64,000 bases of DNA from an uncultured Acidimicrobiia bacterium (GCA_963792895.1 CAWBYA010000006.1:322260-386259), one strand, 5' to 3'. Counted from the stretch's first letter, positions 47,629 to 62,255 are shown. Notes: generated from the sequence alone by a model not told the origin. Numbers and translations are program-made.

Positions 47629-48408
47629 ATGCAACGCCCCGCCGATCCCGTGCCATCCTCGTGGCGCAAGAGCGCCAGATCGATCGAGGCTGCGGCGATC
47701 GCGGGGCTGGCGCACGCCGCGCTGCTCACCGCTGCGATCGCTCTCATTCAGACGCAGCCGCCGCTCGATGCGAGCGACGATACGCTGGTCGCCTTCTACA
47801 GTGATGCCGCTGCTCGCGGGCGCATGCTGCTTGCGCTCAATCTGGCACCGATGAGCATCATCGCCTTCCTGTGGTTCATCGGCGTGATCCGCCGCCGCGT
47901 CGGCGCCGCCGAAGACAAGCTCTTCGCAACGGTCTTCCTCGGGAGCGGTCTCGTGTTCGCAGCCGCCGTTCTGGCCGGCTTTGCGGCCGTGGCCGCTCCG
48001 TCGATCGCAGCAAGCGCAATGGACCGCGTTCCCGACGTCGATGCGATTCGCCTCTCGAGATCTCTGGGGAACGCCATCTTGGGAATCGAGGCCCCGCGGC
48101 TCGGGGCGCTGTTCATTCTGGCGACGTCGCGGCTCGGGGCGAGGACGCAAGCCCTTCCCCGCTGGCTCACGACGATCGGGCTGGTGGTCGGCATCCTCAT
48201 GATCCTCATGTTCACGGTCTGGTCACCCGCCCCGTACTTCTTCCCGGCATGGGTCGCCCTTGCCGCGATCGGGCTGCTGACACGACGGCACGATGGGTCC
48301 CTCGGCGGTGCATCGCCGCCGGATGACGAGCCGCGCGACGTCAGTCGAGTGAGCGCCTGGCGAGGAGCATGGCGATGTCCATCACCTCGACGGTGTCGTC
48401 GGCGTTGA
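47629..48408 (+). CDS. hypothetical multi-TM membrane protein
   Basis: Start MQRPADPV…. Five to six hydrophobic helices (…AAIAGLAHAALLTAAIALI…, …LNLAPMSIIAFLWFIGVI…, …LGSGLVFAAAVLAGFAAVAA…). The Arg-rich last 40 aa overlap the convergent Fe-S gene, so the 3' end is suspect. Confidence 0.45.
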   Translation: MQRPADPVPSSWRKSARSIEAAAIAGLAHAALLTAAIALIQTQPPLDASDDTLVAFYSDAAARGRMLLALNLAPMSIIAFLWFIGVIRRRVGAAEDKLFATVFLGSGLVFAAAVLAGFAAVAAPSIAASAMDRVPDVDAIRLSRSLGNAILGIEAPRLGALFILATSRLGARTQALPRWLTTIGLVVGILMILMFTVWSPAPYFFPAWVALAAIGLLTRRHDGSLGGASPPDDEPRDVSRVSAWRGAWRCPSPRRCRRR

Positions 48409-50531
48409 GCTCCTTGACCCCGTCGTCCATCATCACGAAACAGAAGGGGCACCCGGTGGCGACGACGTCTGCGCCGGTGGCGACCGCCTCCTGGCTGCGC
48501 TCGATGTTGACCTTCTTGCCGGTCTGCTCCTCCATCCACATACGACCGCCGCCCGCGCCGCAGCAGAACGACCGGGTGCCGTTGCGCGGCATCTCGACCC
48601 GGCTGCCCGCTGCGTCGATGACTGACCGCGGGGCAACGAACACGTCGTTGTGACGCCCCAGGTAGCACGGGTCGTGGAACGTGACCGTCTGCCCGTTCGC
48701 CTTCGGATTGAGCTTCCCATCCTCGACGAGCTTCATCAGCAGCTCGCTGTGGTGGATGACCTCGTAGTCGCCGCCGAACTGCGGGTACTCGTTGCCCAGG
48801 GTGTTGAAGCAGTGCGGGCACTGGGTGACGATCTTCGTGATGCCCAGCTCGTTGAGCGTTGCGATGTTCTGCAGGGCGAGCCCCTGGAACACGTACTCGT
48901 TCCCGGTACGGCGCGCCGGATCGCCGGTGCAGAGCTCTCGCGGGCCGAGGATGGCGAAATCGACGCCGGCCTGGTGCATACAACCGTGCGGTCGAGAGGG
49001 TGACCTTGAGGTTGCGGTCGTCGAAGGAGCCTGCGCACCCCACCCAGTAGAGGTACTCGGCTTCGACGCCCGGCTCGCCGAGCACCTTGACCGGGAAGTC
49101 GAGCTGGTCGGTCCAGTCGCCCCGGGTGTTCTGGCTCATCCCGTAGACGTTCGACGAGTTCTCCATGCTGACATACGCCTTGCCGAGCTCGGACGGGAAG
49201 TCGGCCTCCATGAGCGAGAGGTACCGCCGCATGTCGAGGATCTTGTCGAGGATCTCGATGTCGACCGGGCAGATCTCGTCGCAGGCGCGACATGAGGTAC
49301 ACGCCCACAGCTCCTCGGCCGTGATGCGCTCGAAGACCGAGTCGGAGGTGACGGTGATCTCGCGATCGACGCCGACCGTCGGCGAGATCGGGCTCGCAGC
49401 CGTTGCCGCCGCCACCTCGCCGAGCTTCAGCACGATCTCGCGTGGGTCGAGCGGCTTGCCGGTGGTGTTGGCGGGACACACCGACGTGCACCGTCCGCAC
49501 ACGGTGCAGGCGTCGGTGTCGAGGAGCTGTTTCCAGGTGAACTCGCCCACAACCGAGGCGCCGACCGTCTCGACGTCCGTCGCCTCCATGAGGTTGGGCA
49601 TCTCCCGCATGGCGCCCTTGGGGCGCTCTCGCGGCGACAGGAACATGTTGGCAGGCGAGGTCACCATGTGACGGAGCTTGGTGGTGGGCAGCACGACGAG
49701 GAACGCGGCGAAGGTGGCGATGTGGGCAACCCACAGCGCCTGGTGGATACCCGAAGCCGAGCCGAGCGGAACGAGATAGCTGAGCGGGTAGCCGACGAAT
49801 GACCACACCTCGAAGTCGGGTCGGCCGACGACGGCGATGCGGGCAGCCTCGACGGCGAGCCCGGTGATCCCGATCAGCGCAAGGGTGATGAGCACCCCGG
49901 CGTCCTCCGGCTTCGTCTTCGACCGGATCCGCCACGGCCGAGTCCCGTAGCGGCGCAGCGCCGCCCAGCCGAGGCCGGCCAGGTAGACGAGTGCGAACAG
50001 GTCGAGGGTGAATGAGTAGCCCTGGTAGAAGCCGCCCTGGAGGAACTTGAGGTTGTTTGGAGCGAGGTGGTCGATCTCGAGCGTCACCGTGCCGAGGAAC
50101 AGGACGATGAAGCCGACGTAGATCGCCGTATGCATGAGGCCTGCAGATCGATCCTCGAGCAGCGTGCGCATCTGGAGGCCGCGGCGCAGCTCGTGGATGC
50201 GGTGCTTCCACAGCTTGGAGCGGTCTTCCCACGCGCCCCGCTGCCAGTTCTTCGCCCGTTGGGAGAAGAAGTAGAACGTGAGGAAGAGGAACGCCGACAC
50301 CACGACGTAGAACCCGGCGACGAAGATCTCGGGGATGTTGCCGAAGACATGGCGGCCGATCTCGAATCTCGGGCTCGTGCGGAACGGTGCCAAGCCACCA
50401 CAACCCCAACGTCGCCACCGCAGAGATCGCACCGAGGCCCAGCAGCAGCCCGGAAACGGTGAAGCGAGGACCGGTGTTGCGTGGCGGTCTCGGTCTCTGG
50501 GCGTCTCTCGAGCCGTGTCCGTCGCCGTCAC
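48341..50531 (-). CDS. membrane-bound (Fe-S)-binding reductase (NarI-like heme-b membrane domain + 4Fe-4S dicluster + two CCG Cys-rich domains; HdrD/GlpC-like), interrupted by a +1 frameshift near 48985
   Basis: GTG start 6 nt after GGAGAAGGAGG. Five TM helices, then CTVCGRCTSVCP and CTSCRACDEICP, then …WVGCAGSFDDRN…. The continuation (…HQAGVDFAILGPRELCTGDPARRTGNEYVFQ…CPHCFNTLGNEYP…DPCYLGRHN…FCCGAGGGRMW…) is in the frame of ORF 48341..48979. The junction sequence gcacggttgTatgcaccag fits a 1-nt insertion. Confidence 0.7.
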
Positions 50532-50595
50532 CGGTCGCCTCCTTCTCCGACTGCCCGGCGAGTGTACCCAACCCGCCGCCGCTGTCCGCTGAAGG

Positions 50596-50636
50596 TCGCG
50601 GGCGTCTCGGGCGTCTGACCTCTGACGTCTGACGTG
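50596..50636. repeat. heptamer array GTCAGAC x3 (read on the minus strand), about 70-100 bp upstream of the Fe-S reductase start
   Basis: Plus strand gggcgtctgacctctgacgtctgacgtg. The same core recurs at 61383-61433 and 56453-56466. Confidence 0.5.
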
Positions 50637-50670
50637 CCAACCTCGCCCCGGTAGCCTCTCGTCCGTGAAC

Positions 50671-50962
50671 ATGCCCGACACTTACGAATCCGTCGTCGAA
50701 CGGCGCATTCGCGAGGCGATCGAGCGCGGTGAGTTCGACGACCTGCCCGGCAGCGGGCAAGCCGCTGCGCGGAGCGGGCGAACCCTATGACGAGATGTGG
50801 TGGGTCAGGGCGTGGATGCACCCGCAACGAAATCGAGACCTCGAGGGCCGGCTCGAAGCCCCGAGCCAGCGGTGGACGGAGACGCCGCACCTTCGCCGGT
50901 CGTCGCGTGCGATCCCCGTCCTCGGGACCGAGACCGTCCGATTCGCTCCCAGATCCCGGTGA
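50671..50962 (+). pseudogene. DUF1992 (DnaJ-like subfamily C member 28 conserved domain) gene remnant, frameshifted
   Basis: Frame 1 reads MPDTYESVVERRIREAIERGEFDDLPGSG then stops. The family continuation GKPLRGAGEPYDEMWWVRAWM… is in the next frame (ORF 50729..50962). An extra G in the run gcgggcaag explains the shift. Confidence 0.5.
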
Positions 50963-51179
50963 ACAACACGCGGCACTCGCTCGACCGAGATCGCGAGACC
51001 GGCAGCACGTACTTCTTCGGCGAAGCTCCTGCAACGCGATCATGCCCGGAGTGGTCGATGCGTCCGAGGCGCTCGAGATTGAGGCAGATCTCCGTCGCGA
51101 CTGGGGTGCTCGGCGAGCTTCTCGTTGAGGGCATCGGCGAGCACCGGTGCGGAGCCGTAGAACAGCACACCTACTGGCG

Positions 51180-52464
51180 TCACCCGCAGCACGGGAGGAT
51201 GGAAGTCGGTGCGGACGACGAGCCGTGAGCCCTCTCGGTAGAGATGGACGAGTGCCGCGAGGCAACACCGATGAGCACGGCGAGGTCGACCCGCGGCGAC
51301 AAGACGAGCGTGGCAGCGAACGTGACCCAGGCGATGACCGACTGCCCCCAGGTCACTCGGATCAGGCGAATCATCTCCGGTAGCCGTACCATCCGCCCCA
51401 CGCCCATGATGACGATCGCCCCCAGCACGGCGCGGGGCAGATCGCTAGCACTCCCGGCAAGCGGAGTGAAGGCCAGCACGGCGAGCCCGGTCACCGCCCC
51501 GCTCCAACGGGTGCGCGCCCCTGCGAGCTTGTTGACTCCGCTGCGGGCGAAGGAGCCGCCGACCGGGTAGCCCCCGGAGAGACCCGCCGCCAGGTTGGCG
51601 ACCCCCTGCGCCACCAGCTCGCGGTTCGGATCCCATCGCTCCCGGTCCTTGGCCGCAAGGGTGCGGGCGACGGCGGTCGGCTCGGCAAACCCGACCGTTG
51701 CGATGATGAGCCCGGGGATGAGGAGCTTGAGGACATCGCCCCAGGGGAGGGATCGAGCGACAGCGGCGGAAACCCGATGTCGATCTCGCCGACGAGGGCT
51801 CGTCGTAGCCGGTGAGCCCACCGACGGCGAGACCGGCGAGCAGCGCGATGAGCACCCCGGGCACGAGCGGGTGGATACGCCCGGCGATGAGGACGATCAC
51901 GGCACCAGGACCCGCTCATCCCCATCGCCTCCCAGTTCCAGGACTCGGGATGAGCCACGACCGCCCACAGCCGGGGCAGGAGGTCGCTGGGAGCATCTTC
52001 GACGCCGAACTACCACGGCCGTCTGGGAGGCGATGATCAACACGACCGCACCGTTGGTGAAATCCAGCACGACCGGGTGCGACATGTAGTGGGTGATGAG
52101 CCCGCCGTGGGCGAGCCCGAGCCCGAGCCGGATCACACCGACGATCACGGCGAGGAGCAAGCGCGAGCCGCACGTACTCGGCGCTCTGCGGCGCCGCAAG
52201 CCCCGAGAGGGCGCCGAACGTGAGCAGCGACGTCATCGCCACCGGACCCGTCTGCAGGTAGCGCGACGAGGCGAAGTACGCCGCCAGCAGCGACGGGAGG
52301 GCCGCCGCGTAGAGGCCGACGTACGACGGCAGGCCTGCGAGTTCGGCGTAGGCCAGACCCTGCGGCACGACGATGAACGCCACGCTGATCCCGGCAACGA
52401 CATCGCCGACCTGGACACGGCGTTGCCGCGGGCGATCTCCGAGCAGCGGCGTGCTGCCGCTCAT
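51180..52464 (-). pseudogene. SulP-family transporter pseudogene (at least three frameshifts, STAS domain missing)
   Basis: SulP-like segments are spread over three frames: 51916..52464 (MSGSTPLLGDRP…GISVAFIVVPQGLAYAELAGLPSYVGLYAAALP…), 51897..52199 (…LAHGGLITHYMSHPVVLDFTNGAVVLIIASQ…) and 51445..51900 / 51180..51821 (…GVANLAAGLSGGYPVGGSFARSGVNKLAGART…). There is no STAS region before the next gene. Confidence 0.7.
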
Positions 52465-52492
52465 CGAGGCACGGCTCGGCGCCGGCCCGGCG

Positions 52493-53621
52493 TCACTTGG
52501 AGAGGGCGCACTCGTTGCGACCCACCTCGAGCTCGACGGCCTCCTCCCGGCTGGGGAGGTGCCAGCCGAGATTCACCTTGCGAATCGTCCCGTAGATCTC
52601 GGGAGCGTCGCCGAGGTGGGCCACGACGTAGCCGACGAACTCGTCCTCGTCGCGCCATCGACACCACCGGGTCGTTGGTGAGAAGGTCGCCGAGCGGGCG
52701 CCGGATCGTGCCGTCTGCGCCCGCTTCCACCCGAGCCGTGTAGTGGGCGGGGCAGACCTCCAGGTCGGGCGAGAGCGGAGCGAGCTTCTGGTGGATCGTC
52801 TGGAACAGGTCGCGAGCCCACGGCTCGGTCTCTCCGCCGAGGTCGGGGCGGCCGACGCCCGACACGAACACGGCGTCCCCGGTCATCAGGAACTTGCCGT
52901 CGACCTCGATGGAAGTGGAGCCGGGCGTGTGTCCCGGTGTTGCGACCGAGCGCACGACGACGTTCATATCACCAAAGATGAACTCCTCACCGTCGCTCAG
53001 CGGCGCGTAGTGAAACGAAGCACCTTCGGCATCGCCGGGCGAGATGTGATAGGCGGCGCCGAGCTCGGCCGCCATCGCAACGCCGAGCGAGATGTGGTCG
53101 GCGTGGAGGTGGGTGTCGAAGACGTCGGTGATCTGGGCGTTCATCTGCTGGGCGATCCTCTCGTACGCCGAGGCGTCCGCAGCAGGATCGATGATCGCCA
53201 TCGTGGCCCCCCGGGATCCCACCGCGTACGAGAGGCATGCCTTGGCGATGCGGTCGAGTTGGAGCACGAACTTCGCACCGTCGTCGTACAGCACGTGGGG
53301 CACGAGCGCCGTGGCCCAAGCGTCCATTCCGCCGGCGAGGTTGTGCATGTTGGGCAACCCAACGGTCTCGACGACGAGGTCGGACGAGTCGCCGTGGGCG
53401 CAGATCACCACGATGTCGCGGTCTGCCGGCACAGCGCTCTTCACCGCGTCCTCGTCGACGATCGCCGTCCAGTACGGGATGTTCACGGTGCGGAGCTCGG
53501 CCTTGCCTTCCACACGCCAGCGCTCGAACTGGTCGGGAGCGCGGACGTCGAGGATGAACGGTGCGGTTGCGGCGTCATCGACGCGACGAGCCAACTCCTC
53601 GGCGGTGATCGCTCCACTCAT
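52493..53621 (-). CDS. rhodanese-domain + MBL-fold metallo-hydrolase fusion (persulfide-dioxygenase/CstB-like), with a 1-nt frameshift near 52660
   Basis: ATG 7 nt after GGGAGG. Rhodanese region …FILDVRAPDQFERW…VVICAHGDSS…; MBL motif THLHADHISLG. The family-typical C-terminus DEDEFVGYVVAHLGDAPEIYGTIRKVNLGWHLPSREEAVELEVGRNECALSK* is in the adjacent frame, whereas the listed ORF continues into an Arg-rich tail. Confidence 0.75.
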
Positions 53622-53834
53622 GTCACATCCCTCCCGACGCATGCACGGATCCGCATAAGAGGGTAGACGAGGCGAGAACCACTCGACAAGAGACCTCCCG
53701 ATCCCCCGATCCGGCGTGGATGGCCCACCAGAAACGGCGCCTGATCCACGCAGGAACGAGCACTTCGGCCCTTGGCCGCATCCGCACGCTGGAGGCAGGA
53801 TCGAGTTGCGAGGCATCTCCCAAAGGAGGGGCCG

Positions 53835-55445
53835 ATGCGTATACACGCATTCTGTGCGATTGCCGCGTGTGTCCTCGTGGCGGCAGCTTGCGCAGAGGCA
53901 GCGCCGGTCGGCGACACGACGACGACCACCCTCAGTGCTGCGACGTCGACGACGATCCGATTGTCGCAGACCACCGGACCGGCCGGCACGACCACCTCGG
54001 CACCGCCCACCACGACACACGCGCCCGACCACGCCATGCCAGAACTCCTCGTTGTCGGCCCCGAAGGCGTGTTCCTCGTGGAGCCGGGCGCGGACCCCGT
54101 CCAACTCGTTGAGGGCAGGGCGGCGACGGCGGTCGACGACGGGCTCGGTGGCCTGCTGTACCAGATCGACGCCGGCCGGGATTGGGAACAGACCGAAGAA
54201 CCGCGGACGACGATCGTGTGGTGGGTGCCTGCCGGATCGGAACGGCCACTCGACCTGCTGGTCCCGGCGAGCGACCAGGACCTGACCCTCGAAGACGCCT
54301 ATGCCGTGGACGGCAGCCTCACGGTCCTGTACCGGCGGTCTGAAGGAGCAGTTTCGTTCGAGATGGTCGACAGTCTCAGGAGCTACGACCGCGCGACCGG
54401 GTCCGTCGCCGAGCTGATGAGAGGCAGCGCGTGGGAGTCCGGCTTCGACATCGGTTCCGTCGGCGGCGGCCTCATCGCCGGCACCTCGTACACACAGGTC
54501 GACGCTTCGTGCTTCCTCCTGAACCTCGACGGCGAAGTCATCTCCTCGCCGGCGAATCCGTCCGTGCCCGGGTGCGAGAGTCCAGGCTGTCCCGACTCAT
54601 GCGTGCTGTCGCCCGATGGCAGCGGACTGGCCCACGTGGAGACACGGTATGTCGAATCGACCAACACCACCACGGCCCATGAAATCGTCGTTTCCGACAT
54701 GGCCACCGGGGAGAAGATCCACACGATCGAGTTCCCGCCTGGCAACGGGCGCATCTCCCTCGACATCGCCGACGACTGGATCCTCGTCAACCGCGCCACC
54801 GGCGAAGAGCCGCTGGCGGCCCTGGTCGTGAACGCTGCGAGCCCGGACATCCCCGCATGGGAGGCGCCCGTCGCCGGCGTTGCCCGGTTCGTGACCGCCC
54901 CCGTCACCGTCCGTCCGGCGCAATTCGCGCTGCGGGGCGACGGCCTCGGAATCGTCGAGCTCGGCCAGCCGATGGCCTCGGCGATGCCCTTGCTCGAGGC
55001 GCGATTCGGAGCGACGTCCGACGAATGGACGTACGACCCGGAGAACTGTCGCGGCGATACCGAACGATGCTGCTCCGCCATGACAGGGTCAGGCTGCGAG
55101 GACTACTTCCGTGCCGTCACTTGGGACGATGTGGGATTGTCGGTGACCTTCGCCGACGACTTCAGATACCCGAGCGACGGCGTACCTCACCTCACGTTCT
55201 GGTCAACCTGGGGAGCCAACGGCAACACGGCAACGCTCGAAAGCGTGTCGATCGGGACCACCGAAGTCGCGCTGCAGGCCGCCTACGGCAACCGGCTCGT
55301 ACGCACGATCGTGGGATGCGGCGACGACGCCCCCGCCTATCGGCTCAACGAGGAGATGCCGATCGTCTTCGAACTCTCGGGCCCGTTCGGCGACCCTGCG
55401 ACGACCGTCACCGGTATGTGGGCGGGCAACCCCGGCTCCTGTTGA
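53835..55445 (+). CDS. secreted lipoprotein of unknown function (about 536 aa)
   Basis: ATG after AAAGGAGGGG. Signal peptide plus lipobox MRIHAFCAIAACVLVAAACAE, a Thr-rich linker, then a Cys-containing globular region (…GCESPGCPDSCVLSPDGSG…, …CRGDTERCCSAMTGSGCEDYF…). Confidence 0.7.
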   Translation: MRIHAFCAIAACVLVAAACAEAAPVGDTTTTTLSAATSTTIRLSQTTGPAGTTTSAPPTTTHAPDHAMPELLVVGPEGVFLVEPGADPVQLVEGRAATAVDDGLGGLLYQIDAGRDWEQTEEPRTTIVWWVPAGSERPLDLLVPASDQDLTLEDAYAVDGSLTVLYRRSEGAVSFEMVDSLRSYDRATGSVAELMRGSAWESGFDIGSVGGGLIAGTSYTQVDASCFLLNLDGEVISSPANPSVPGCESPGCPDSCVLSPDGSGLAHVETRYVESTNTTTAHEIVVSDMATGEKIHTIEFPPGNGRISLDIADDWILVNRATGEEPLAALVVNAASPDIPAWEAPVAGVARFVTAPVTVRPAQFALRGDGLGIVELGQPMASAMPLLEARFGATSDEWTYDPENCRGDTERCCSAMTGSGCEDYFRAVTWDDVGLSVTFADDFRYPSDGVPHLTFWSTWGANGNTATLESVSIGTTEVALQAAYGNRLVRTIVGCGDDAPAYRLNEEMPIVFELSGPFGDPATTVTGMWAGNPGSC

Positions 55446-55457
55446 ACGATCGAAAGG

Positions 55458-55781
55458 TCAGCGGCCGACCGGCTCCGCCACCTGCTCGGCCATGACCTCG
55501 CGCAAGAGATCCATCGCCTCGATGATCTTCGTTGTCGTGACCGAGTAGAAGGCAAACTGGCCATCTTTGCGTGCCCGTACCAGGCCCTTGTCGCGCAGTA
55601 CGGCGAGGTGCTGTGACACGTTCGCCTGCGGCACTCCGAGCTCCTCTACGAGCTCGGTCACCGTCCGCTCCCCGTCACGCAGGGCGTTGATGATCAGGAG
55701 CCGCTTGGGGTCGGCGAGACCCTTGCAGACGCTTGCGTGCAGCTGGATCAGCTCGTCGTGTATCGCACTCATGACGGCCAA
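55458..55781 (-). CDS. ArsR/SmtB-family metalloregulator-type transcriptional repressor
   Basis: Winged-HTH …LADPKRLLIINALRDGERTVTELVEELGVPQANVSQHLAVLRDKGLV…; a single Cys (SVCKGL). It is divergent from the DsrE-like gene. Confidence 0.85.
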   Translation of the reverse strand: MAVMSAIHDELIQLHASVCKGLADPKRLLIINALRDGERTVTELVEELGVPQANVSQHLAVLRDKGLVRARKDGQFAFYSVTTTKIIEAMDLLREVMAEQVAEPVGR

Positions 55782-55861
55782 CTATGGCAGACCCCCCGAC
55801 AGGCGCCAATACGCCGAACTGCTTGACACGGGCAACTACCGCACGCTTAGATTCGCATCCA

Positions 55862-55881
55862 CGCATATTCCTGTATGCGGC
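55862..55881. promoter_or_regulatory. inverted repeat CGCATA-N6-TATGCG in the ArsR / DsrE-like divergent promoter region (coordinates ±2)
   Basis: …cgcatattcctgtatgcg…. A related CGCATGCACGGATCCGCATA element lies upstream of the rhodanese-MBL gene (about 53640-53660). Confidence 0.35.
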
Positions 55882-55894
55882 GAAGGGAGCCCAC

Positions 55895-56437
55895 ATGACG
55901 GTCCACGAGCTCGAGCCGGCTGCAGCCGGCGATGCGGAACCGGAGGCGCCCGCGGCTCCCGAGAAAGAGAAGATGGTCCTGATCGCCGCGTCCGGCGACC
56001 TCGACAAGGCATGGCCCGTCATGATCCTCGCCACGACGGGCGCTGCCTACGGCATGGACGTCACCATCTTCTTCACGTTCTGGGGGCTGAGCATCCTCAA
56101 ACGCAAGGATTCCGGCATCACCGGCGAGGACTGGCGGCAGAAGATGCTGTCGGTGTTCCACCGCGGCAGCCCCGACAAGCTCGGTCTCTCCAAGCTCCAC
56201 TTCGCCGGCATGGGACCGATGATGATGAAGGGCCTCGCCGAGGACCACAACGTCGCCTCAGTGCAGGAACTGCTCGAGCTCGCCCAAGAGATGGGGGTGA
56301 AGCTGTGGCCGTGCCAGATGACCATGGACCTCATGGGCATCACCCGTGACGACATGATCCCCGGTCTCGACGAGCCCGCAGGCGCCGGCTCTGCGATCAG
56401 CCTGATGAAGGAGGCCTCGATCTCGCTGTTCATCTGA
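55895..56437 (+). CDS. DsrE/DsrF-like (YchN-like) sulfur-relay family protein
   Basis: ATG after GAAGGGAG. …KMVLIAASGDLDKAWPVMILATTGAAYGMDVTIFFTFWGL… with Cys in …KLWPCQMTMDLMGI…. Confidence 0.75.
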   Translation: MTVHELEPAAAGDAEPEAPAAPEKEKMVLIAASGDLDKAWPVMILATTGAAYGMDVTIFFTFWGLSILKRKDSGITGEDWRQKMLSVFHRGSPDKLGLSKLHFAGMGPMMMKGLAEDHNVASVQELLELAQEMGVKLWPCQMTMDLMGITRDDMIPGLDEPAGAGSAISLMKEASISLFI

Positions 56438-56646
56438 GGAGACACGCACGTTGTCAGACCGCTCCAGACTCGCCCTCCGCTCCGGAGATCGCTCGCTGCG
56501 CTCGCTCCAAGACCGCTCGCTTCGACTCGCATCGAGTCTCTCGAGGCAAGGCCGCACTGGCCGAAGCGATCCAGAAGCGAGGCGCAGCCGAGCGATCTAA
56601 CTCGCCGCCAGACCACGTCGAACCACGAACGAAAGGAGACAGACCA

Positions 56647-56871
56647 ATGGCCGATATCACCGTCGACGCTCGGGGGCTGCAGTGCCCCATGCCCGTGATC
56701 AAGACCGCTCAGGCCATCGGCAAGATCGACTCCGGCCAGACGCTCGAGGTCATCGCCACGGACCGCGGCGCCCTCTCCGACATCCCGGCCTGGAGCAAGG
56801 ACATGGGCCATTCGCTCAAGGAAGAGTTCGAGGCAGACAGCGAGTACCACTTCATCATCCAGAAGAGCTAG
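56647..56871 (+). CDS. TusA-like sulfurtransferase (SirA/YedF/YeeD family)
   Basis: ATG after AAAGGAGAC. 74 aa with the active-site motif GLQCPMPV (CPxP). Confidence 0.85.
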   Translation: MADITVDARGLQCPMPVIKTAQAIGKIDSGQTLEVIATDRGALSDIPAWSKDMGHSLKEEFEADSEYHFIIQKS

Positions 56872-57039
56872 ACGCCAGCGAGCGGACCTTCGGCGTCGAT
56901 CCAGCATGCTCGGTAGCTCGGTAGCCGGACCGGGTAGACCAGTCTGGCAGCGAGCGCACCGAGCGATCCGACTGATATCGGGCGCAGCGGCGGCTCACCG
57001 AGCTATAGTCCGTACATAATCGCAGGAGGCCATGCCAGC

Positions 57040-57760
57040 GTGCGTTACGGGTTCGTCATCGACCAGACGGTCTGCATCGGCTGCCATGCGTGCACGGTGG
57101 CCTGCAAGACCGAGCACCAGGTCCCGCTCGGCGTCAACCGCACCTGGGTGAAGTACGTCGAGAAGGGCGCGTGGCCGGACACCAAGACGGTTCTTCTCGG
57201 TGATGCGGTGCAACCATTGCACCGACGCCCCTTGCGTCACGATCTGCCCCACCACTGCGCTCTACAAGCGTGACGACGGGATCGTCGACTTCGACACCGA
57301 CCGCTGCATCGGCTGCAAGTCGTGTATGCAGGCGTGCCCGTACGACGCCCTGTACATCGACCCCCAGGAGCACACGGCCCAGAAGTGCAACTACTGCGTG
57401 CACAGAGTCGAGGTCGGCATCGAGCCGGCCTGCGTGGTGGTGTGCCCCGAGCAGGCGATCATCGCAGGCGATCTCGACGACCCCGCCACGAAGATCGCAC
57501 GGATGGTGGCGACCGACCAGCTGTTCCAGCGGGCGCCGGAGCAGGGAACGAACCCGAACCTCTGGTACAAGGGCGTCGAAGAGGCGAACATCGACCCGCT
57601 CGGCGCAGCCGATCCGGGTGACGGTGGCGTGTGGCGAGACCCCGCATCCTCGTGGCTCGCCGTCGACCTCACCCCGCCGAGCGTCACCAACGGCGTCGGC
57701 TTCGGTGACGCCCGAGCGCGCCGGCGCACATCGTCCACGACGACCGCAACGCCCCGCCGA
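57040..57760 (+). CDS. 4Fe-4S ferredoxin-type electron-transfer subunit of the molybdoenzyme (DmsB/PsrB/TtrB-like), frameshifted near 57190; 3' end unresolved
   Basis: All four cluster motifs are present: CIGCHACTVAC (ORF 57040..57273), then in the next frame CNHCTDAPCVTICP, CIGCKSCMQACP and CNYCVHRVEVGIEPACVVVCP, plus the C-terminal tail …PNLWYKGVEE… (ORF 57200..). The shift fits a 1-nt insertion at ctcGgtgatg. That frame has no stop before the NrfD-like gene. Confidence 0.65.
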
Positions 57761-57762
57761 GA

Positions 57763-58626
57763 GTGGTCTACAACACAGACCATCCGATGCCGTGGGGATG
57801 GCGTGTGTCGAGCTACTTCCTCACCAAGGGCATCGCCGCCGGCATCACCCTCGCCCTCGTCATCGCCATGCTGGCGGGAAGCGGCACCGATTCCACGTGG
57901 GCGACGTGGGGCGCCCCGCTCGTGGCAGGGCTCTTCCTCGCCCTCACCGGTGGTTTGCTGGTGTGGGACCTCAAGCGCCCGGACCGCTTCTACTACCTGC
58001 TGACCAAGGGCAACCCCGGCTCATGGCTGGTCCGCGGGGCGTGGATCCTGAGCGCCTTCGCTGCCGTGGTCGGCGCGTGGTTCCTCGCCGGGGTGTTCGG
58101 CATCGACGGCGCCATCCCGGCGCTCGCCTGGGCGGCGGCAGTGCTCGGGCTGGGGCTCGCAGGCTACACCGCGTTCCTCTTCGGGCAGGCCGAAGCGCGG
58201 GACCTGTGGCAGAGCCCAACGCTGCTGTGGCACATGCTGGCCGGGGCCTTCGCCGCCGGCGGCGGCTTCGGGTTGCTCGCCGGTCTGGTCTTCGATCTCG
58301 GCGAGACGGCCGAGCGCGCCTTCGCCTGGTCGATGATCGGCGGGGCTGCCGCCCTCGGGTTGATCGCGATGGCCGAGCTGACTTCCCGCCACCCGACCCG
58401 CAACATCGCCGAGGCCGTGCACCACATGACCCGTGGGGAGTTCGCCCGCGAGTGGTGGGCGGGCGGCCAGCTTCTGGGCGTTGCCGTGCCGATCGCACTC
58501 GGCGCCGTGTTCCTCGGCGGAGCGGAGCTGTGGGTGGGGGCGCTCGGAGGCGTAGGCGCCATGGCAGGCATCTGGTTCGCCGACGATGCCTTCGTGAAGG
58601 CCGGCCAGAGCGTTCCCCTCTCGTGA
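57763..58626 (+). CDS. NrfD/PsrC-family integral membrane quinol-interacting subunit
   Basis: N-terminal HPMPWGWRVSSYFLTKGIAAG (the conserved W-x-W / Y-F-x-x-G motif of the NrfD family) followed by eight TM helices. Confidence 0.8.
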   Translation: MVYNTDHPMPWGWRVSSYFLTKGIAAGITLALVIAMLAGSGTDSTWATWGAPLVAGLFLALTGGLLVWDLKRPDRFYYLLTKGNPGSWLVRGAWILSAFAAVVGAWFLAGVFGIDGAIPALAWAAAVLGLGLAGYTAFLFGQAEARDLWQSPTLLWHMLAGAFAAGGGFGLLAGLVFDLGETAERAFAWSMIGGAAALGLIAMAELTSRHPTRNIAEAVHHMTRGEFAREWWAGGQLLGVAVPIALGAVFLGGAELWVGALGGVGAMAGIWFADDAFVKAGQSVPLS

Positions 58627-58648
58627 CCGACAAGGAGACCGTGCAGCG

Positions 58649-61381
58649 ATGACGACGCAGCGGGACGACCGGATCCCTCGTCTCCTCCCCGGGAGCGAGC
58701 TCACCAACTTCCCTCCCCCCGAGCGCTGGGACGACTGGGAGGAATACGACGCCCAAGCGTGGCCGAAGCGGGTCAAGCACGAGTACCGGCTGGTGCCGAC
58801 GACGTGCTTCAACTGCGAGTCGGCGTGCGGGTTGCTGGCCTACGTCGACAAGGAGACCGGCCGGGTGCGCAAGTTCGAGGGCAACCCCGCGCACCCCGGG
58901 TCGCGAGGCCGCAACTGCGCCAAGGGCCCGGCGACGATCAACCAGATGTACGACCCGGAGCGCATCCTCCACCCGATGCGGCGCGTCGGCGAGCGGGGTT
59001 CCGGGCAGTGGGAGCAGGTCACGTGGGAGCAGGCCCTCGACGACATCGCGGGGCGTATGCGCACCGCCATCCAAGAGGGCCGCAACGACGAGATCATGTA
59101 TCACGTGGGCCGTCCCGGCGAGGACGGGTTCATGGACCGCACTTTGAAGGCATGGGGCGTCGACGGCCACAACAGCCACACCAACATCTGCTCGGCAGGC
59201 GCCCGCACCGGGTATGCGATGTGGATGGGCCACGACAGGCCGTCCGCCGACTTCGCCAATGCCCGCTTCATCCTGCTGCTGTCGTCGCACCTCGAGACGG
59301 GGCACTACTTCAACCCGCACGCTCAGCGGATCATGGAGGGCAAGCAGGCGGGGGCGAAGCTGGCGACCATCGACCCCAGGCTCTCCAACACGGCATCGAT
59401 GTCGGACATCTGGCTGTCGCCGTGGCCGGGCACCGAGGCGGCGATCCTGCTCGCCATAGCCCGGCTGCTGCTCGAGTGGGACACCGTCGATCACGACTTC
59501 ATGCGCCGCTGGGTCGACTGGGGCGGCGCACTGGACGCCATGGCGCCGGGCGAGCCGCGCACGTATGCGAGCTTCGTACGGCTCCTGAAGGACACCTACG
59601 CGGGGTACACGGTCGAGTTCGCCGCCGAGGAGTCCGGCGTCGACGCCGCCCGCATCGAAGCGGTCGCCAAGGGCATCGCCGAGGCGGGGCATCGATTCGC
59701 CTCGCACACGTGGCGATCCGCCGGATCCGGCAACGAGGGTGGCTGGCAGGTGGCCCGGTGCCTGTGGTTCCTCCACGTCCTCACGGGGGCGGTCGGCACG
59801 AAGGGCGGCACGTCGCCGAGCGCATGGGACAAGTTCAAACCACAGCATTGGAACATGCCGCCGCCGCACAGCCGGTGGAACGAGCTGTTGTGGCCGATCG
59901 AGTATCCGTTCAGCCACCACGAACTGTCGATCCTCCTCCCCCATTTCCTGAAAGAGGGTCGCGGCAAGCTCGACGTCTACTTCTCCCGCGTCTACAACCC
60001 GGTCTGGACCAACCCGGACGGTTTCTCCTGGCTGGAGGCCCTCACCGACGAGGACAAGATCGGTCTACACGTCGCCCTGACGCCGACATGGTCGGAGACG
60101 GCATGGTTCGCCGACTACGTCCTGCCGATGGGCGTCGCTTCCGAGCGTCACGACACCCACTCGTATGAAACCCACGCCGGCCGCTGGCTCGGGTTCCGTC
60201 AGCCGGTGCTGAGGGTGGCGGGTGAGCGCGACGGCAAACACTTCGATCGCACGTACGAGGCGAACCCCGGCGAAGTCTGGGAAGAGACCGAGTTCTGGAT
60301 CGACCTGTCATGGCGGGTCGACCCAGACGGCTCGCTCGGCATCAAGAAGTGGTTCCAGTCGCCGAACGATCCCGAGCGGCCGGTTTCTGTGGACGAGTAC
60401 TACGGGTGGATGTTCGACAACAGTGTGCCCGGCCTGCCGGACAAGGCGGCCGCGCAAGGTCTCACGCCGCTGGAGTACATGCGCAAATATGGCGCAGTCG
60501 AGGTCGAGAAGGACATCTACGCCGTCCACGAGCGGCCCGCCCCATCCCAAGGGCCGGCCGTCGAGATCGAGGGAGAGCGCAAGACCGGCTTCAACTCGCC
60601 GAGTCGCAAGCTCGAGTGGTACTCCAAGACGATGGCCGACTGGGGTTGGGCGGAGGTGGCGATGCCCTCCTACATGAAGACCCACGTCTACTGGCGCGAC
60701 ATGGACATCGCCGGCAACGAGCGTGTGCTGCTGCCCATCTTCCGGCTTCCCACGCTGATCCACACTCGGTCGGGCAACGCCAAGTACCTCTACGAGATCA
60801 GCCACGGACACCCGCTGTGGATGAACCCGCAGGACGCCGATGCCCTCGACTTCGCGACGGGGCAGATGATCCGCATCAACACCGACATCGGCTACTTCGT
60901 GATGCGGGTGTGGCGCACCGAGGGCATCCGGCCCGGCGTGGTGGCTGCGTCACACCACATGGGCCGCTGGCGCCTGCAGGACGACAAGGGCAACGAGCGC
61001 TGGTCGTCTGCGCTGGTCGACATATCGCGCAAGGACGGCGGATGGATGCTGCGCCAGGAGAAGGGCATTGGCCCCTTCACGTCCGACGACCCAGACAGCG
61101 AGCGCATCTGGTGGCAAGACGCAGGAGTCAATCAGAATCTGGCGTTCCCCGTGCACCCGGACCCGATCTCGGGCATGCACGCCTGGCATCAGAGGGTGCG
61201 GCTCACCGCTGCAGAAACGGGCGATCGCTACGGCGACGTCTTCGTCGACACGACGAAGTCCCACGAGGTGTACTTGGAATGGCTCGCCAAGACCAAGCCC
61301 GGTCCCGGCCCCGGCAACCTACGTCGCCCGATGTGGCTCGACCGACCGGTGAAGCCGACACCGGATGCGTACCAGTTCTGA
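58649..61381 (+). CDS. molybdopterin (bis-MGD) oxidoreductase catalytic subunit, PsrA/PhsA/TtrA/SoeA-like; no Tat signal
   Basis: 910 aa. N-terminal [4Fe-4S] motif CFNCESACG…C(AKG); MGD-binding-type segments. The C-terminal molybdopterin dinucleotide-binding region is present. The N-terminus MTTQRDDRIPRLLPGSELTNFPPPERW has no RRxFLK and no hydrophobic h-region. Confidence 0.9.
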   Translation: MTTQRDDRIPRLLPGSELTNFPPPERWDDWEEYDAQAWPKRVKHEYRLVPTTCFNCESACGLLAYVDKETGRVRKFEGNPAHPGSRGRNCAKGPATINQMYDPERILHPMRRVGERGSGQWEQVTWEQALDDIAGRMRTAIQEGRNDEIMYHVGRPGEDGFMDRTLKAWGVDGHNSHTNICSAGARTGYAMWMGHDRPSADFANARFILLLSSHLETGHYFNPHAQRIMEGKQAGAKLATIDPRLSNTASMSDIWLSPWPGTEAAILLAIARLLLEWDTVDHDFMRRWVDWGGALDAMAPGEPRTYASFVRLLKDTYAGYTVEFAAEESGVDAARIEAVAKGIAEAGHRFASHTWRSAGSGNEGGWQVARCLWFLHVLTGAVGTKGGTSPSAWDKFKPQHWNMPPPHSRWNELLWPIEYPFSHHELSILLPHFLKEGRGKLDVYFSRVYNPVWTNPDGFSWLEALTDEDKIGLHVALTPTWSETAWFADYVLPMGVASERHDTHSYETHAGRWLGFRQPVLRVAGERDGKHFDRTYEANPGEVWEETEFWIDLSWRVDPDGSLGIKKWFQSPNDPERPVSVDEYYGWMFDNSVPGLPDKAAAQGLTPLEYMRKYGAVEVEKDIYAVHERPAPSQGPAVEIEGERKTGFNSPSRKLEWYSKTMADWGWAEVAMPSYMKTHVYWRDMDIAGNERVLLPIFRLPTLIHTRSGNAKYLYEISHGHPLWMNPQDADALDFATGQMIRINTDIGYFVMRVWRTEGIRPGVVAASHHMGRWRLQDDKGNERWSSALVDISRKDGGWMLRQEKGIGPFTSDDPDSERIWWQDAGVNQNLAFPVHPDPISGMHAWHQRVRLTAAETGDRYGDVFVDTTKSHEVYLEWLAKTKPGPGPGNLRRPMWLDRPVKPTPDAYQF

Positions 61382-61382
61382 G

Positions 61383-61433
61383 ACGTCAGACCGCAGACGT
61401 CAGACCGCAGACGTCAGACCGAGACGTCAGGAT
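61383..61433. repeat. tandem 14-bp repeat (GACGTCAGACCGCA)x3.5, immediately after the molybdoenzyme stop
   Basis: tgaGACGTCAGACCGCAGACGTCAGACCGCAGACGTCAGACCGAGACGTCAGG. Confidence 0.8.
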
Positions 61434-61493
61434 CGGCGAATCGGGACACCTGGCGGGTGACGCTGCCGGGTCGTCCGGCGCGAGAATGCCGTC

Positions 61494-62255
61494 GTGAGTG
61501 AGACCGACAGGTCCGGGGCAGCCGAGGCGGCACGCACCGAGGCGAGGCTGTGGGTTGCGGTCGCCGAGACCGTACCGGTCGAACGGGGCGACGTTCCTCC
61601 CACCGAAAGCGACGTCGTCATGTTCTTCGACCCCGCCGACGACCTCGCTCGACGTGCCGCCTCGTGGGGTCATCAACTCTCCGACGCATCGCTCTCCTCG
61701 CTCGCCTTGTTCGGCGCAGGGTTGGCGATGGCGGAGGCCCAGGCGTGGGACCGAGATGAACCCCACGTCGCCACGCGTGCGTACTCCGATCGGCGTTTCC
61801 TGCTGGGAGATCGCATCTTGCACTGGGCCGTGCCCTGGCTCGACGCAGCAGGACGCTGCTACCCGGCGCACCGAGAGCGCGCTCACCACAGCCGCGACCT
61901 CCTGCTGAGCCTCGGCGATCGGCTGCGGCCCGCCCCCGACCTCGGCGCGATCGAGGGTCTGACGCCGCCTGGCGAGGATTCCTTCGGTCCGGTGACACTC
62001 GACGTGCCGCTCGGCGACTGGGTCCGTTCGCTGTGGAGTGGCGCCCTCGTGCTCGACGCCACGGTTCGTTCGCTGATCGGGGGCTCAGGCGAACTCGACC
62101 TCACCGGGCCGGGAAGGGCCGACGTCGCCATGCTGTATTCGGTGGCGGCCGCCCGCTGGCGAACGGTTGCGGCGGCTCACCCAGGAAGCGCGCGGCTGTG
62201 GCGCGATCTCGCCATCCGGGCAGATATGACCGCAGCGAGGCTCGAGCCTCACTGA
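61494..62255 (+). CDS. hypothetical cytoplasmic protein; by position possibly a molybdoenzyme-specific assembly factor
   Basis: 253-aa ORF with good coding GC3 directly downstream of the catalytic subunit gene. No recognisable motif. Confidence 0.5.
   Translation: MSETDRSGAAEAARTEARLWVAVAETVPVERGDVPPTESDVVMFFDPADDLARRAASWGHQLSDASLSSLALFGAGLAMAEAQAWDRDEPHVATRAYSDRRFLLGDRILHWAVPWLDAAGRCYPAHRERAHHSRDLLLSLGDRLRPAPDLGAIEGLTPPGEDSFGPVTLDVPLGDWVRSLWSGALVLDATVRSLIGGSGELDLTGPGRADVAMLYSVAAARWRTVAAAHPGSARLWRDLAIRADMTAARLEPH

Follow-up and report, generated by a model that had tools for sequence, protein, structure and literature searches.

A putative cytoplasm-facing molybdoenzyme encoded beside persulfide-handling genes in an uncultured Acidimicrobiia bacterium

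Sulfite and persulfides are toxic intermediates in the degradation of cysteine, organosulfonates, dimethylsulfoniopropionate and sulfide. Textbook models of heterotrophs stop at sulfide:quinone oxidoreductase and persulfide dioxygenase (PDO) with export of sulfite or thiosulfate, and energy-conserving oxidation of cytoplasmic sulfite is credited to the proteobacterial enzyme SoeABC, which Dahl et al. in 2013 reportedly placed downstream of cytoplasmic, sulfite-producing sulfur oxidation. Here we analyse a stretch of 64,000 nucleotides (the window; GCA_963792895.1 CAWBYA010000006.1:322260-386259, 66% G+C) from an uncultured Acidimicrobiia bacterium, in which sulfur-trafficking genes adjoin a two-gene molybdoenzyme. 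We call it BC-A: BC joins a ferredoxin domain to an NrfD/PsrC-type membrane anchor, and A is the catalytic subunit with a molybdenum bis(pyranopterin guanine dinucleotide) cofactor (Mo-bisPGD). BC-A is very probably a cytoplasm-facing, quinone-linked molybdoenzyme of reactive-sulfur metabolism.

The closest functional parallel is SoeABC of Allochromatium vinosum, whose counterpart in Aquifex aeolicus was first called the sulfur reductase SreABC. SoeABC oxidises sulfite to sulfate with reduction of quinone, and resembles BC-A in its cytoplasmic catalytic and ferredoxin subunits, the lack of a twin-arginine translocation (Tat) signal, a Cys ligand to molybdenum and an NrfD-type anchor (PMC10100899). 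Its subunits, however, are separate and ordered A-B-C, whereas here B is fused to C and both stand ahead of A in every member examined. The operon described here also opens with dsrE and tusA and ends, in Acidimicrobiia, with a lineage-specific gene (hyp253). SoeABC hosts are mainly Proteobacteria, while BC-A is found in Actinomycetota, Thermomicrobia and haloarchaea. Likened by features and not by sequence, BC-A is most likely analogous to SoeABC in function, yet of another architecture and lineage.

Other relatives are exported. PsrABC of Thermus thermophilus (2vpw) and PhsABC match BC-A in their subunit types, in the alignment of the Cys ligand and in an NrfD anchor of eight helices, but share only about 20-24% identity with A (24% for Salmonella PhsA), are Tat-exported and periplasmic, and have separate subunits in the order A-B-C. 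Nearest outside the BC-A clade (37-49% identity) are Tat-dependent B-C-A-TorD operons from a Sulfurovum mangrovi plasmid and from metagenomes (P0127, P0189), for which we found no assigned function. They have in common with BC-A the N-terminal region 'YPPxExW ... LVPTxCxNCE', the pocket pattern RP..HT..CS..R and the order B, C, A, but differ in bearing an RRxFLK signal, and are therefore periplasmic; they also have separate B and C genes, a TorD-family chaperone, a 4Fe-4S protein of about 360 aa and sometimes a cytochrome c. An operon of this kind on the Azoarcus KH32C plasmid (L085) adds a PhnD-like binding protein, a sensor kinase and a sigma-54 regulator. In the Sulfurovum mangrovi plasmid (L086), gene A is unannotated and appears frameshifted after the Tat signal. 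What is new in the present locus is a predicted inward-facing complex iron-sulfur molybdoenzyme (CISM) with a fused ferredoxin-anchor subunit inside persulfide-response operons.

The BC-A complex and its predicted orientation

Window proteins were assigned to families with Pfam and NCBIfam, applying gathering thresholds and curated cut-offs (Table 1). All families named in a first-pass annotation made from the sequence alone (ArsR, DsrE-like, TusA, rhodanese fused to a metallo-beta-lactamase (MBL), Fe-S, NrfD and molybdoenzyme) proved real, while its strand details and its separate B and C genes did not stand. The dsrE and tusA genes are indeed divergent from the rhodanese-MBL gene, but arsR shares the strand of the latter and lies opposite dsrE. 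The likeness to TtrBCA that had been noted extends to the B-C-A order, which is common to Ttr; B and C are fused here, and the Ttr models score far under their cut-offs.

We scanned one genome per species for relatives of A and studied gene context in 82 related loci. At least 583 species-level genomes, with Actinomycetota, Thermomicrobium, haloarchaea and Myxococcota among them, encode such a relative. The best 80 (76-90% identity) came from marine, sediment, sand and sponge samples; they are mostly labelled Acidimicrobiia or Acidimicrobiaceae, others have generic labels, and two are binned to Alphaproteobacteria. BC lies before A in 79 of the 82 loci, the remaining three being cut by contig ends. 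Around this pair we found hyp253 (54 loci), tusA (34), arsR (33), dsrE (32), rhodanese-MBL (28) and sulP (26), without exception arranged and oriented as in the window, and in about 32 loci dsrE-tusA-BC-A(-hyp253) is divergent from arsR-rhodanese/PDO-sulP.

A related arrangement occurs on plasmid pRHL3 of Rhodococcus jostii RHA1, where genes for a DsrE-like protein, TusA, BC (506 aa), A (955 aa, 61% identity) and an Mrp/NBP35 Fe-S carrier are divergent from those for two MBL-fold proteins, two DUF202 proteins and an ArsR. The clustering goes far beyond what chance would produce, as this gene order is repeated across species-level genomes and again in a second class of actinobacteria. The pRHL3 region (L083, 213195-233969) also holds genes for three more MBL-fold proteins, two DUF202 membrane proteins, a thioredoxin, a second ArsR and an MFS transporter, and looks like a plasmid-borne reactive-sulfur island. 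Among cultured Actinomycetes, A is further encoded by Nocardioides, Kribbella, Actinomadura, Amycolatopsis, R. opacus and R. rhodochrous. Overall, BC-A occurs in marine and sponge Acidimicrobiia, freshwater Nanopelagicales, soil Rhodococcus and Nocardioides, Thermomicrobium and haloarchaea.

The ferredoxin and NrfD parts form one protein of 504-607 aa in 79 of the 82 loci and likewise in Rhodococcus (506 aa), Thermomicrobium (510 aa), Natrinema (607 aa) and a Myxococcota contig (528 aa); the proteins of the related loci L001 and L002 measure 541 and 525 aa. We therefore dropped B and C as separate genes. With all Pfam domains above their gathering thresholds, BC-A is a CISM of the MopB superfamily with an NrfD-type anchor.

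Four lines of evidence agree on how this complex would sit in the membrane. First, the reading frame of A starts at the first possible codon, with a stop directly upstream and the BC stop 22 nt before, which rules out an earlier start or a hidden Tat signal, including any upstream start encoding RRxFLK. Second, neither a Tat motif nor a hydrophobic N-region was found in any of 240 A homologues, and the same was true of the Rhodococcus, Thermomicrobium and Natrinema proteins. The first 52 residues of A are acidic and non-hydrophobic, and the maximal hydropathy of 12 N-terminal residues reaches 1.31 in the Acidimicrobiia set and 0.76 in the Actinomycetes set, versus 1.4-2.0 in Tat-bearing relatives. 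The N-terminal tail is conserved (IPRLLPGSELTNFPPPERWDDWEEYD), and in place of a signal 'IPRLLPGSELTNFPPPDRWDDWEEYDA' is conserved as sequence.

Third, clear RRxFLK signals are carried by relatives at 33-49% identity, such as P0127 (MAMHRRTFLKAAALTSGAAAA..., 49%), P0189, P0154, the Sulfurovum plasmid gene and the Azoarcus protein (MEFPKITRRTFLKASAG...). Because these more distant proteins have them, the absence of a signal throughout the BC-A clade is meaningful. Fourth, BC begins directly with its first Cys cluster, without a signal and behind an AGGAGG ribosome-binding site (RBS), and the anchor has the ferredoxin domain fused to its N-terminus. Lys and Arg residues on the loops that would be cytoplasmic with the Fe-S domain inside number 12, versus 1 on the outer loops, in L001, and 10 versus 0 in Rhodococcus. 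The stand-alone anchor of the Tat-dependent Azoarcus enzyme has the opposite charge pattern. A cytoplasm-facing subunit A is thus well supported by sequence features, and the anchor of BC is predicted to be inserted upside-down relative to Psr-type enzymes. In the history of the clade, export was likely lost, B fused to C and the anchor inverted.

Subunit A carries the [4Fe-4S] motif C53-x2-C56-x3-C60...C90, and its predicted molybdenum ligand is Cys181, which aligns with the ligands PsrA Cys173 and ArrA Cys193. Four pocket residues, R155, H177, T178 and R186, align with R165, H189, S190 and K198 of ArrA from Shewanella ANA-3 (ArrAB, 6cz7), which we take to be binders of the arsenate oxyanion; they have no counterpart in PsrA and are invariant in a 74-sequence alignment of the family. 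The pocket would favour a small oxyanion as substrate, an argument tempered by the His-Thr...Cys pattern that related Tat-type groups also have. ArrA itself is 19% identical to A, periplasmic and without a membrane anchor fusion, and the gene context here is one of sulfur, not arsenic.

No NCBIfam equivalog covers A. The best score was that of PhsA (NF012032, 185.5 bits against a cut-off of 694), followed by DmsA/YnfE (182 against 778), ArrA (101 against 1600) and TtrA (98 against 1750), while TtrB reached 149 of 416 bits and TtrC 21 of 314. With scores so far below the curated cut-offs, and no Tat signal, we rejected membership in Psr/Phs, Ttr and Arr; only the B-C-A order is held in common with Ttr. 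Among solved proteins, PsrA (4e-32) and ArrA (4e-29) come closest in sequence. An AlphaFold2 (AF2) model of A (pLDDT 84, pTM 0.87) matched ArrA best (E 6e-40, TM 0.67/0.74), and its similarity to ArrA and PsrA spans TM 0.64-0.78 at 19-20% identity. In a rough neighbour-joining tree, the signal-less BC-A clade (window, Rhodococcus, Thermomicrobium, Natrinema, P0121) stands beside Tat-bearing P0127, both within a wider 'YPPxExW' group and apart from a second Tat group, PhsA and DmsA.

The cytoplasmic placement without a Tat signal and the N-terminal Cys motif of the first-pass annotation were borne out, the loop charges fit an inverted anchor with the Fe-S domain inside, and no nitrate or formate enzyme is among the nearest solved relatives of A. 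Its failure to match a named operon also holds: public names of A are generic ('molybdopterin-dependent oxidoreductase', 'formate dehydrogenase' or the IMG name for COG0243), and full-text searches of the literature found no description of the BC-A family.

Some divergent members (33-45% identity) deviate at the active site. The molybdenum-ligand Cys is missing in the alignment of P0125 (L092, Myxococcota), which reads 'DPHAD', of P0129 (L094) and of P0154, yet P0125 lies in an operon with PDO-rhodanese and YeeE-type genes. Such members may use another ligand or have lost the cofactor.

Sulfur context and the proposed reaction

The protein encoded by the rhodanese-MBL gene has its rhodanese domain at the N-terminus, with the active-site Cys in a CAHGDSS loop, and the HxHxDH motif of the MBL domain reads THLHADH. 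It gave 13 PDB sequence matches (E from 5e-20 to 3e-06). The named ones are persulfide dioxygenases (BpPRF 5ve3/5ve4, ETHE1 4chl), 3tp9, 3r2u, 4ysb, 4ysk and 2gcu, with generic names, are presumably PDOs or PDO-rhodanese fusions, and two weak PDB matches are hydroxyacylglutathione hydrolases. BpPRF and CstB have the other domain order. By motifs and named relatives, the gene is predicted to be of the persulfide-dioxygenase type (ETHE1/CstB/PRF). The DsrE-like protein has a single Cys, Cys140 (WPCQMT), matches the NCBIfam DsrE2 model partially (95 versus 210 bits) and finds 3pnx, a 'putative sulfurtransferase DsrE', in the PDB. Genes for both carriers also occur in Rhodococcus.

Similar neighbours were found in other lineages. 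On the Myxococcota contig, PDO-rhodanese and two YeeE-type sulfur-transport genes come before a 42%-identical A, with a sigma-54 activator alongside. In Thermomicrobium roseum, the gene ahead of BC-A carries the annotation 'metal-sensitive transcriptional regulator', and we take it to be CsoR/CstR-like; in Actinomadura a TauE-family gene is nearby. In a Nanopelagicales genome (L100; JAWKJK010000003.1, 1-4779), BC-A stands back-to-back with tusA-dsrE-hdrC-hdrB-hdrA-hyp-hdrCB, with a short hdrA. The gene content suggests a complete sHdr-like sulfane-sulfur oxidiser, and hence a capacity for cytoplasmic sulfur oxidation in a member of the freshwater Nanopelagicales. ArsR, CsoR-like and sigma-54 proteins are regulator classes that include known persulfide sensors. 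A sulfur-compound enzyme tied to persulfide handling, as first proposed, is therefore well in keeping with the conserved dsrE-tusA-BC-A operon and with the PDO, YeeE-type transporter and sHdr genes and three regulator classes that adjoin BC-A.

PDO and sHdr are different machines that both release sulfite in the cytoplasm. For sHdr, this is reportedly described in PMC11094781. Because BC-A adjoins these two sulfite-producing systems, and because SoeABC offers a precedent, we propose a sulfite:menaquinone role: on the analogy with SoeABC, there is an even chance that BC-A oxidises sulfite to sulfate and passes the electrons to menaquinone. Substrate, catalytic direction, quinone partner, regulator signal and the exact role of TusA and DsrE are thus what we infer from this setting.

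The locus would then form a regulated cytoplasmic module for the disposal of reactive sulfur with energy gain, its ArsR repressor lying between two divergent units. In the first (arsR, rhodanese-PDO, SulP), persulfide sulfur and O2 would yield sulfite or thiosulfate, and the oxyanion would be moved across the membrane. The second (dsrE-like, tusA, BC, A, hyp253) would supply two Cys-based sulfur carriers and the two-gene membrane molybdoenzyme. A, with Mo-bisPGD, Cys181 and one [4Fe-4S] cluster, and the four-cluster ferredoxin domain of BC would both lie in the cytoplasm. There, A would oxidise sulfite to sulfate, completing persulfide oxidation, and SulP would move the anion; electrons would pass through five Fe-S clusters to menaquinone in the anchor and on to respiration. 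TusA and DsrE may feed sulfane sulfur to the rhodanese-PDO, or hold thiosulfate or sulfite equivalents.

Several points weigh against sulfite oxidation. About half of the Acidimicrobiia loci, especially in sponge-symbiont lineages, have BC-A without sulfur genes nearby. IMG names members by COG and not by the soeA KEGG orthology term, and a KEGG-based study of sponge metagenome-assembled genomes (MAGs) reported soeABC in seven bins, none described as Acidimicrobiia. The regulator has one conserved Cys only, unlike the two-Cys persulfide sensors BigR and SqrR, and thus lacks their Cys pair. TusA and DsrE would not be needed for oxidation of free sulfite, and the substrate may be carrier-bound. 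Finally, the direction of catalysis cannot be read from sequence, because an Aquifex enzyme of the SoeA lineage is described as a sulfur reductase, bSreA (PMC10100899).

The same cytoplasm-facing complex might accordingly be a reductase, in which menaquinol would reduce sulfane sulfur, polysulfide, thiosulfate or tetrathionate to sulfide (plus sulfite) as in a detoxifier of the Psr, Phs or bacterial Sre type, the substrate possibly being presented as a persulfide or thiosulfonate on TusA or DsrE. We consider this unlikely, if still to be reckoned with. PsrA and ArrA, the closest solved relatives, are reductases, PhsA gave the best NCBIfam score, and the B-C-A order resembles Ttr-like operons, for instance that of Azoarcus with its two-component regulators. 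TusA and DsrE-type proteins reportedly bind thiosulfonate formed from tetrathionate (PMC4175335), and bacterial SreA groups with SoeA and is cytoplasmic (PMC10100899). On the other hand, the partner PDO is O2-dependent and oxidises the same sulfur pool, the association with sHdr fits an oxidative pathway, and spending quinol to remake sulfide beside sulfide-removing enzymes is hard to rationalise. The hosts (Acidimicrobiia, Rhodococcus, Nocardioides, Thermomicrobium, haloarchaea) are, moreover, presumably mostly aerobes, which also speaks against a reductase.

Less likely still is an oxidation of carrier-bound sulfane sulfur, in which TusA, loaded via DsrE or rhodanese, would present a persulfide to the molybdenum site, oxygen-atom transfers would yield thiosulfonate or sulfite, and electrons would go to menaquinone. 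BC-A would in that case be the catalytic end of a third, molybdenum-based route of cytoplasmic sulfane-sulfur oxidation beside rDsr and sHdr, with TusA handing over a persulfide or thiosulfonate and with sulfite or sulfate as product, a role that we regard as equally doubtful. Were it true, it would mean respiratory use of persulfides without Dsr, sHdr or Sox in abundant aerobic Actinomycetota, Thermomicrobia and haloarchaea. That dsrE and tusA are the first genes of the BC-A operon in Acidimicrobiia and Rhodococcus is consistent with it, and the highly conserved acidic tail of A could serve as a docking surface. In each of the two known cytoplasmic systems for sulfur oxidation, the substrate is reportedly delivered by TusA and DsrE-type proteins (PMC11094781, PMC3397948). 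Many BC-A loci, however, have no tusA or dsrE, and in the Nanopelagicales genome both are part of the neighbouring sHdr unit, which is encoded on the opposite strand. The Arg/His/Thr/Arg pocket, as in ArrA, suits a small oxyanion better than a protein persulfide, and we know of no Mo-bisPGD enzyme with a protein persulfide as its substrate, which further weakens the case.

Gene integrity, regulation and neighbouring genes

Several genes of the locus are interrupted in this assembly. In translated searches (tblastn), BC of L001 matched frames 1, 2 and 1 at 57040-57186, 57191-57688 and 57712-58623, the window having a surplus A at 57187 relative to every comparator and further single extra bases at about 57692-5 and 57715-7. 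Removal of the three bases restored a 527-aa BC frame with 71% identity to the L001 protein over its full length. In the rhodanese-MBL gene, one extra base at about 52650-52656 had to be deleted to obtain a 375-aa frame. The sulP gene contains several single-base insertions or deletions (indels), so that the intact L001 SulP matches three frames.

Two sister assemblies of the same population, L096 and L097, were found via an identical 253-aa protein. L097 matches the window at 98.8% identity across 51.5-56.4 kb, and its 520-aa SulP is intact, without the extra bases at 51749, 51908, 52010 and 52161. Neither sister assembly has the window's extra bases, and SulP (520-521 aa) and rhodanese-MBL (375 aa) are intact in both, but they contain dozens of single-base indels of their own in BC and A, where the A gene of the window is intact. 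Each gene is therefore intact in at least one assembly or full-length once window-private insertions are removed. As the sister assemblies lack exactly those bases and carry different indels, we conclude that the frameshifts in BC, rhodanese-MBL and SulP are assembly errors and not decay. Programmed frameshifting and pseudogenisation were rejected, the indels being assembly-specific.

A decaying operon, with real frameshifts in BC, rhodanese-PDO and SulP and a non-functional system, is accordingly very unlikely. It draws some weight from the uneven spread of the stop-less frame switches, which is unexpected for uniform sequencing error: a coarse census of the whole window with a hidden Markov model of third-position G+C, which made many 'non-coding' calls, confined them to 47.8-58 kb and placed none in A. 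Against this stand the two same-population assemblies, with their own indels in A, and the full-length, well-conserved proteins recovered on removing the extra bases. Across 47800-58000, the window and the sister assemblies each have many private single-base indels, clustered in different genes, in the manner of long-read-style consensus errors. Gene calls in such MAGs, with B and C split and SulP fragmented, should not be trusted as they stand.

The ArsR repressor has a single invariant Cys19 (HAxVC19KGLADPKRL), which is kept in 33 of the 33 locus orthologues scanned, Rhodococcus included; a second Cys, at another position, occurs in about half of the orthologues and is absent in the window protein. 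NCBIfam gave partial matches to TsoR and BigR (BigR 60 versus 155 bits), and PDB matches include BigR (3pqj) and 6o8l, which we take to be SqrR. In the arsR-dsrE intergenic region, TTGACA (55823-55828), TAGATT (55848-55853) and the inverted repeat CGCATA-N6-TATGCG (55862-55879), described as overlapping the -10 region, precede an RBS and the ATG at 55895. An alignment of 28 orthologues and the window showed TTGACA in most, and the palindrome as well as the RBS and ATG in nearly all. A strict sigma-70 scan of the region found no promoter; the conserved TTGACA and palindrome emerged only from the cross-species alignment. This arrangement fits control of the dsrE-tusA-BC-A operon by one repressor.

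Operons under BigR/SqrR and CstR (Xylella/Agrobacterium blh, Staphylococcus cst, Rhodobacter sqr) likewise combine an ArsR repressor, a rhodanese-fused PDO, an anion transporter and TusA/DsrE carriers, but they end with sulfite or thiosulfate export and have no molybdoenzyme, and BigR and SqrR have a Cys pair in place of the one invariant Cys found here. A non-sulfur oxyanion as substrate (arsenite/arsenate, selenite/selenate or similar), with the sulfur genes as neighbours for another reason, is highly improbable: the regulator is of the ArsR family and ArrA is the best fold match with an aligned pocket, but no ars, arr or arx accessory genes lie nearby, the ArrA model falls far short of its cut-off, and the neighbours that recur in four phyla (PDO, rhodanese, TusA, DsrE, YeeE, sHdr, SulP, TauE) are all sulfur-specific.

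The spacers dsrE-tusA (56438-56646, 209 nt) and tusA-BC (56872-57039, 168 nt) contain short tandem repeats (a 24-nt unit twice, GCTCGGTA twice and GCACCGAGC twice) that differ among the sister assemblies. Comparison of the intergenic regions with Rfam, together with a tandem repeat search, gave nothing significant.

The accessory gene hyp253 belongs to the operon. Its product has 285 homologues, all 'hypothetical' and all from Acidimicrobiia, and is all-helical in an AF2 model (pLDDT 93.7). No Pfam, PDB profile or TorD profile matched it, hhalign included, and Foldseek gave weak, non-significant matches, with TtrD of Archaeoglobus five times among the top 18. Its position is held by an Mrp/NBP35 Fe-S carrier in Rhodococcus, Natrinema and Actinomadura. 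By analogy, hyp253 is possibly a diverged maturation chaperone, perhaps binding the N-terminal tail of A as NarJ binds NarG.

Between rhodanese-MBL and arsR, the arsR-side unit is interrupted by a 557-aa lipoprotein-like frame on the opposite strand. It had no Pfam or NCBIfam match and is found only in this population: it is present in L096 and L097 and absent from 82 of the 82 related loci. Farther out (47796-50681, minus strand) lies a gene for a large membrane Fe-S protein that resembles DsrMK or Rv0338c, being a fusion of a NarI-like (Nitrate_red_gam) domain and an HdrD-like CCG domain. The gene has a frameshift near 48978 in the present assembly, is also found flanking the locus in L001, and may belong to a wider sulfur and redox neighbourhood.

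Table 1. Features of the locus in window coordinates
Feature	Position	Strand	Evidence or remark
SulP-family anion permease (sulfate/sulfite transporter)	~50930-52464 (lower coordinate approximate)	-	tblastn with L001 SulP; last gene of the arsR-side unit
Rhodanese-MBL fusion (persulfide-dioxygenase type, predicted)	52493-53621	-	Pfam Rhodanese and Lactamase_B; 375 aa once 1 extra base is removed
Lipoprotein-like reading frame, 557 aa	53772-55445	+	Signal of lipoprotein type (...VLVAAAC), Thr-rich linker
ArsR/SmtB-family repressor	55458-55772	-	Pfam HTH_5; divergent from dsrE
Predicted promoter/operator of the dsrE-tusA-BC-A operon	55823-55889	+	Intergenic alignment
DsrE-like sulfur carrier, DrsE_2 family, 180 aa	55895-56437	+	Pfam PF13686, 2.8e-48
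TusA sulfur carrier, 74 aa, C13-P-M-P	56647-56871	+	Pfam TusA, 2.6e-25
BC fusion: Fer4_11 four-cluster ferredoxin domain, linker, 8-helix NrfD/PsrC anchor	57040-58626	+	Pfam/NCBIfam; 3 frame segments in the window
Catalytic Mo-bisPGD subunit A, 910 aa	58649-61381	+	Pfam Molybdop_Fe4S4, Molybdopterin, Molydop_binding
Conserved all-helical accessory protein, 253 aa (hyp253)	61494-62255	+	Directly after A in relatives

Implications of the BC-A family

The BC-A family is large, ecologically prominent and unannotated, and context alone points to its likely function, which would be analogous to that of a known enzyme. As the operon is present in the cultured, genetically tractable Rhodococcus jostii RHA1 (pRHL3), the hypothesis is directly testable. 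If the predicted orientation is true, the family would offer a clear example from nature of a respiratory molybdoenzyme that has come to face inward, with periplasmic sisters at hand for comparison. And if BC-A oxidises sulfite, annotation pipelines would be missing a large part of sulfite-oxidising capacity, owing to the generic names under which these proteins are filed.

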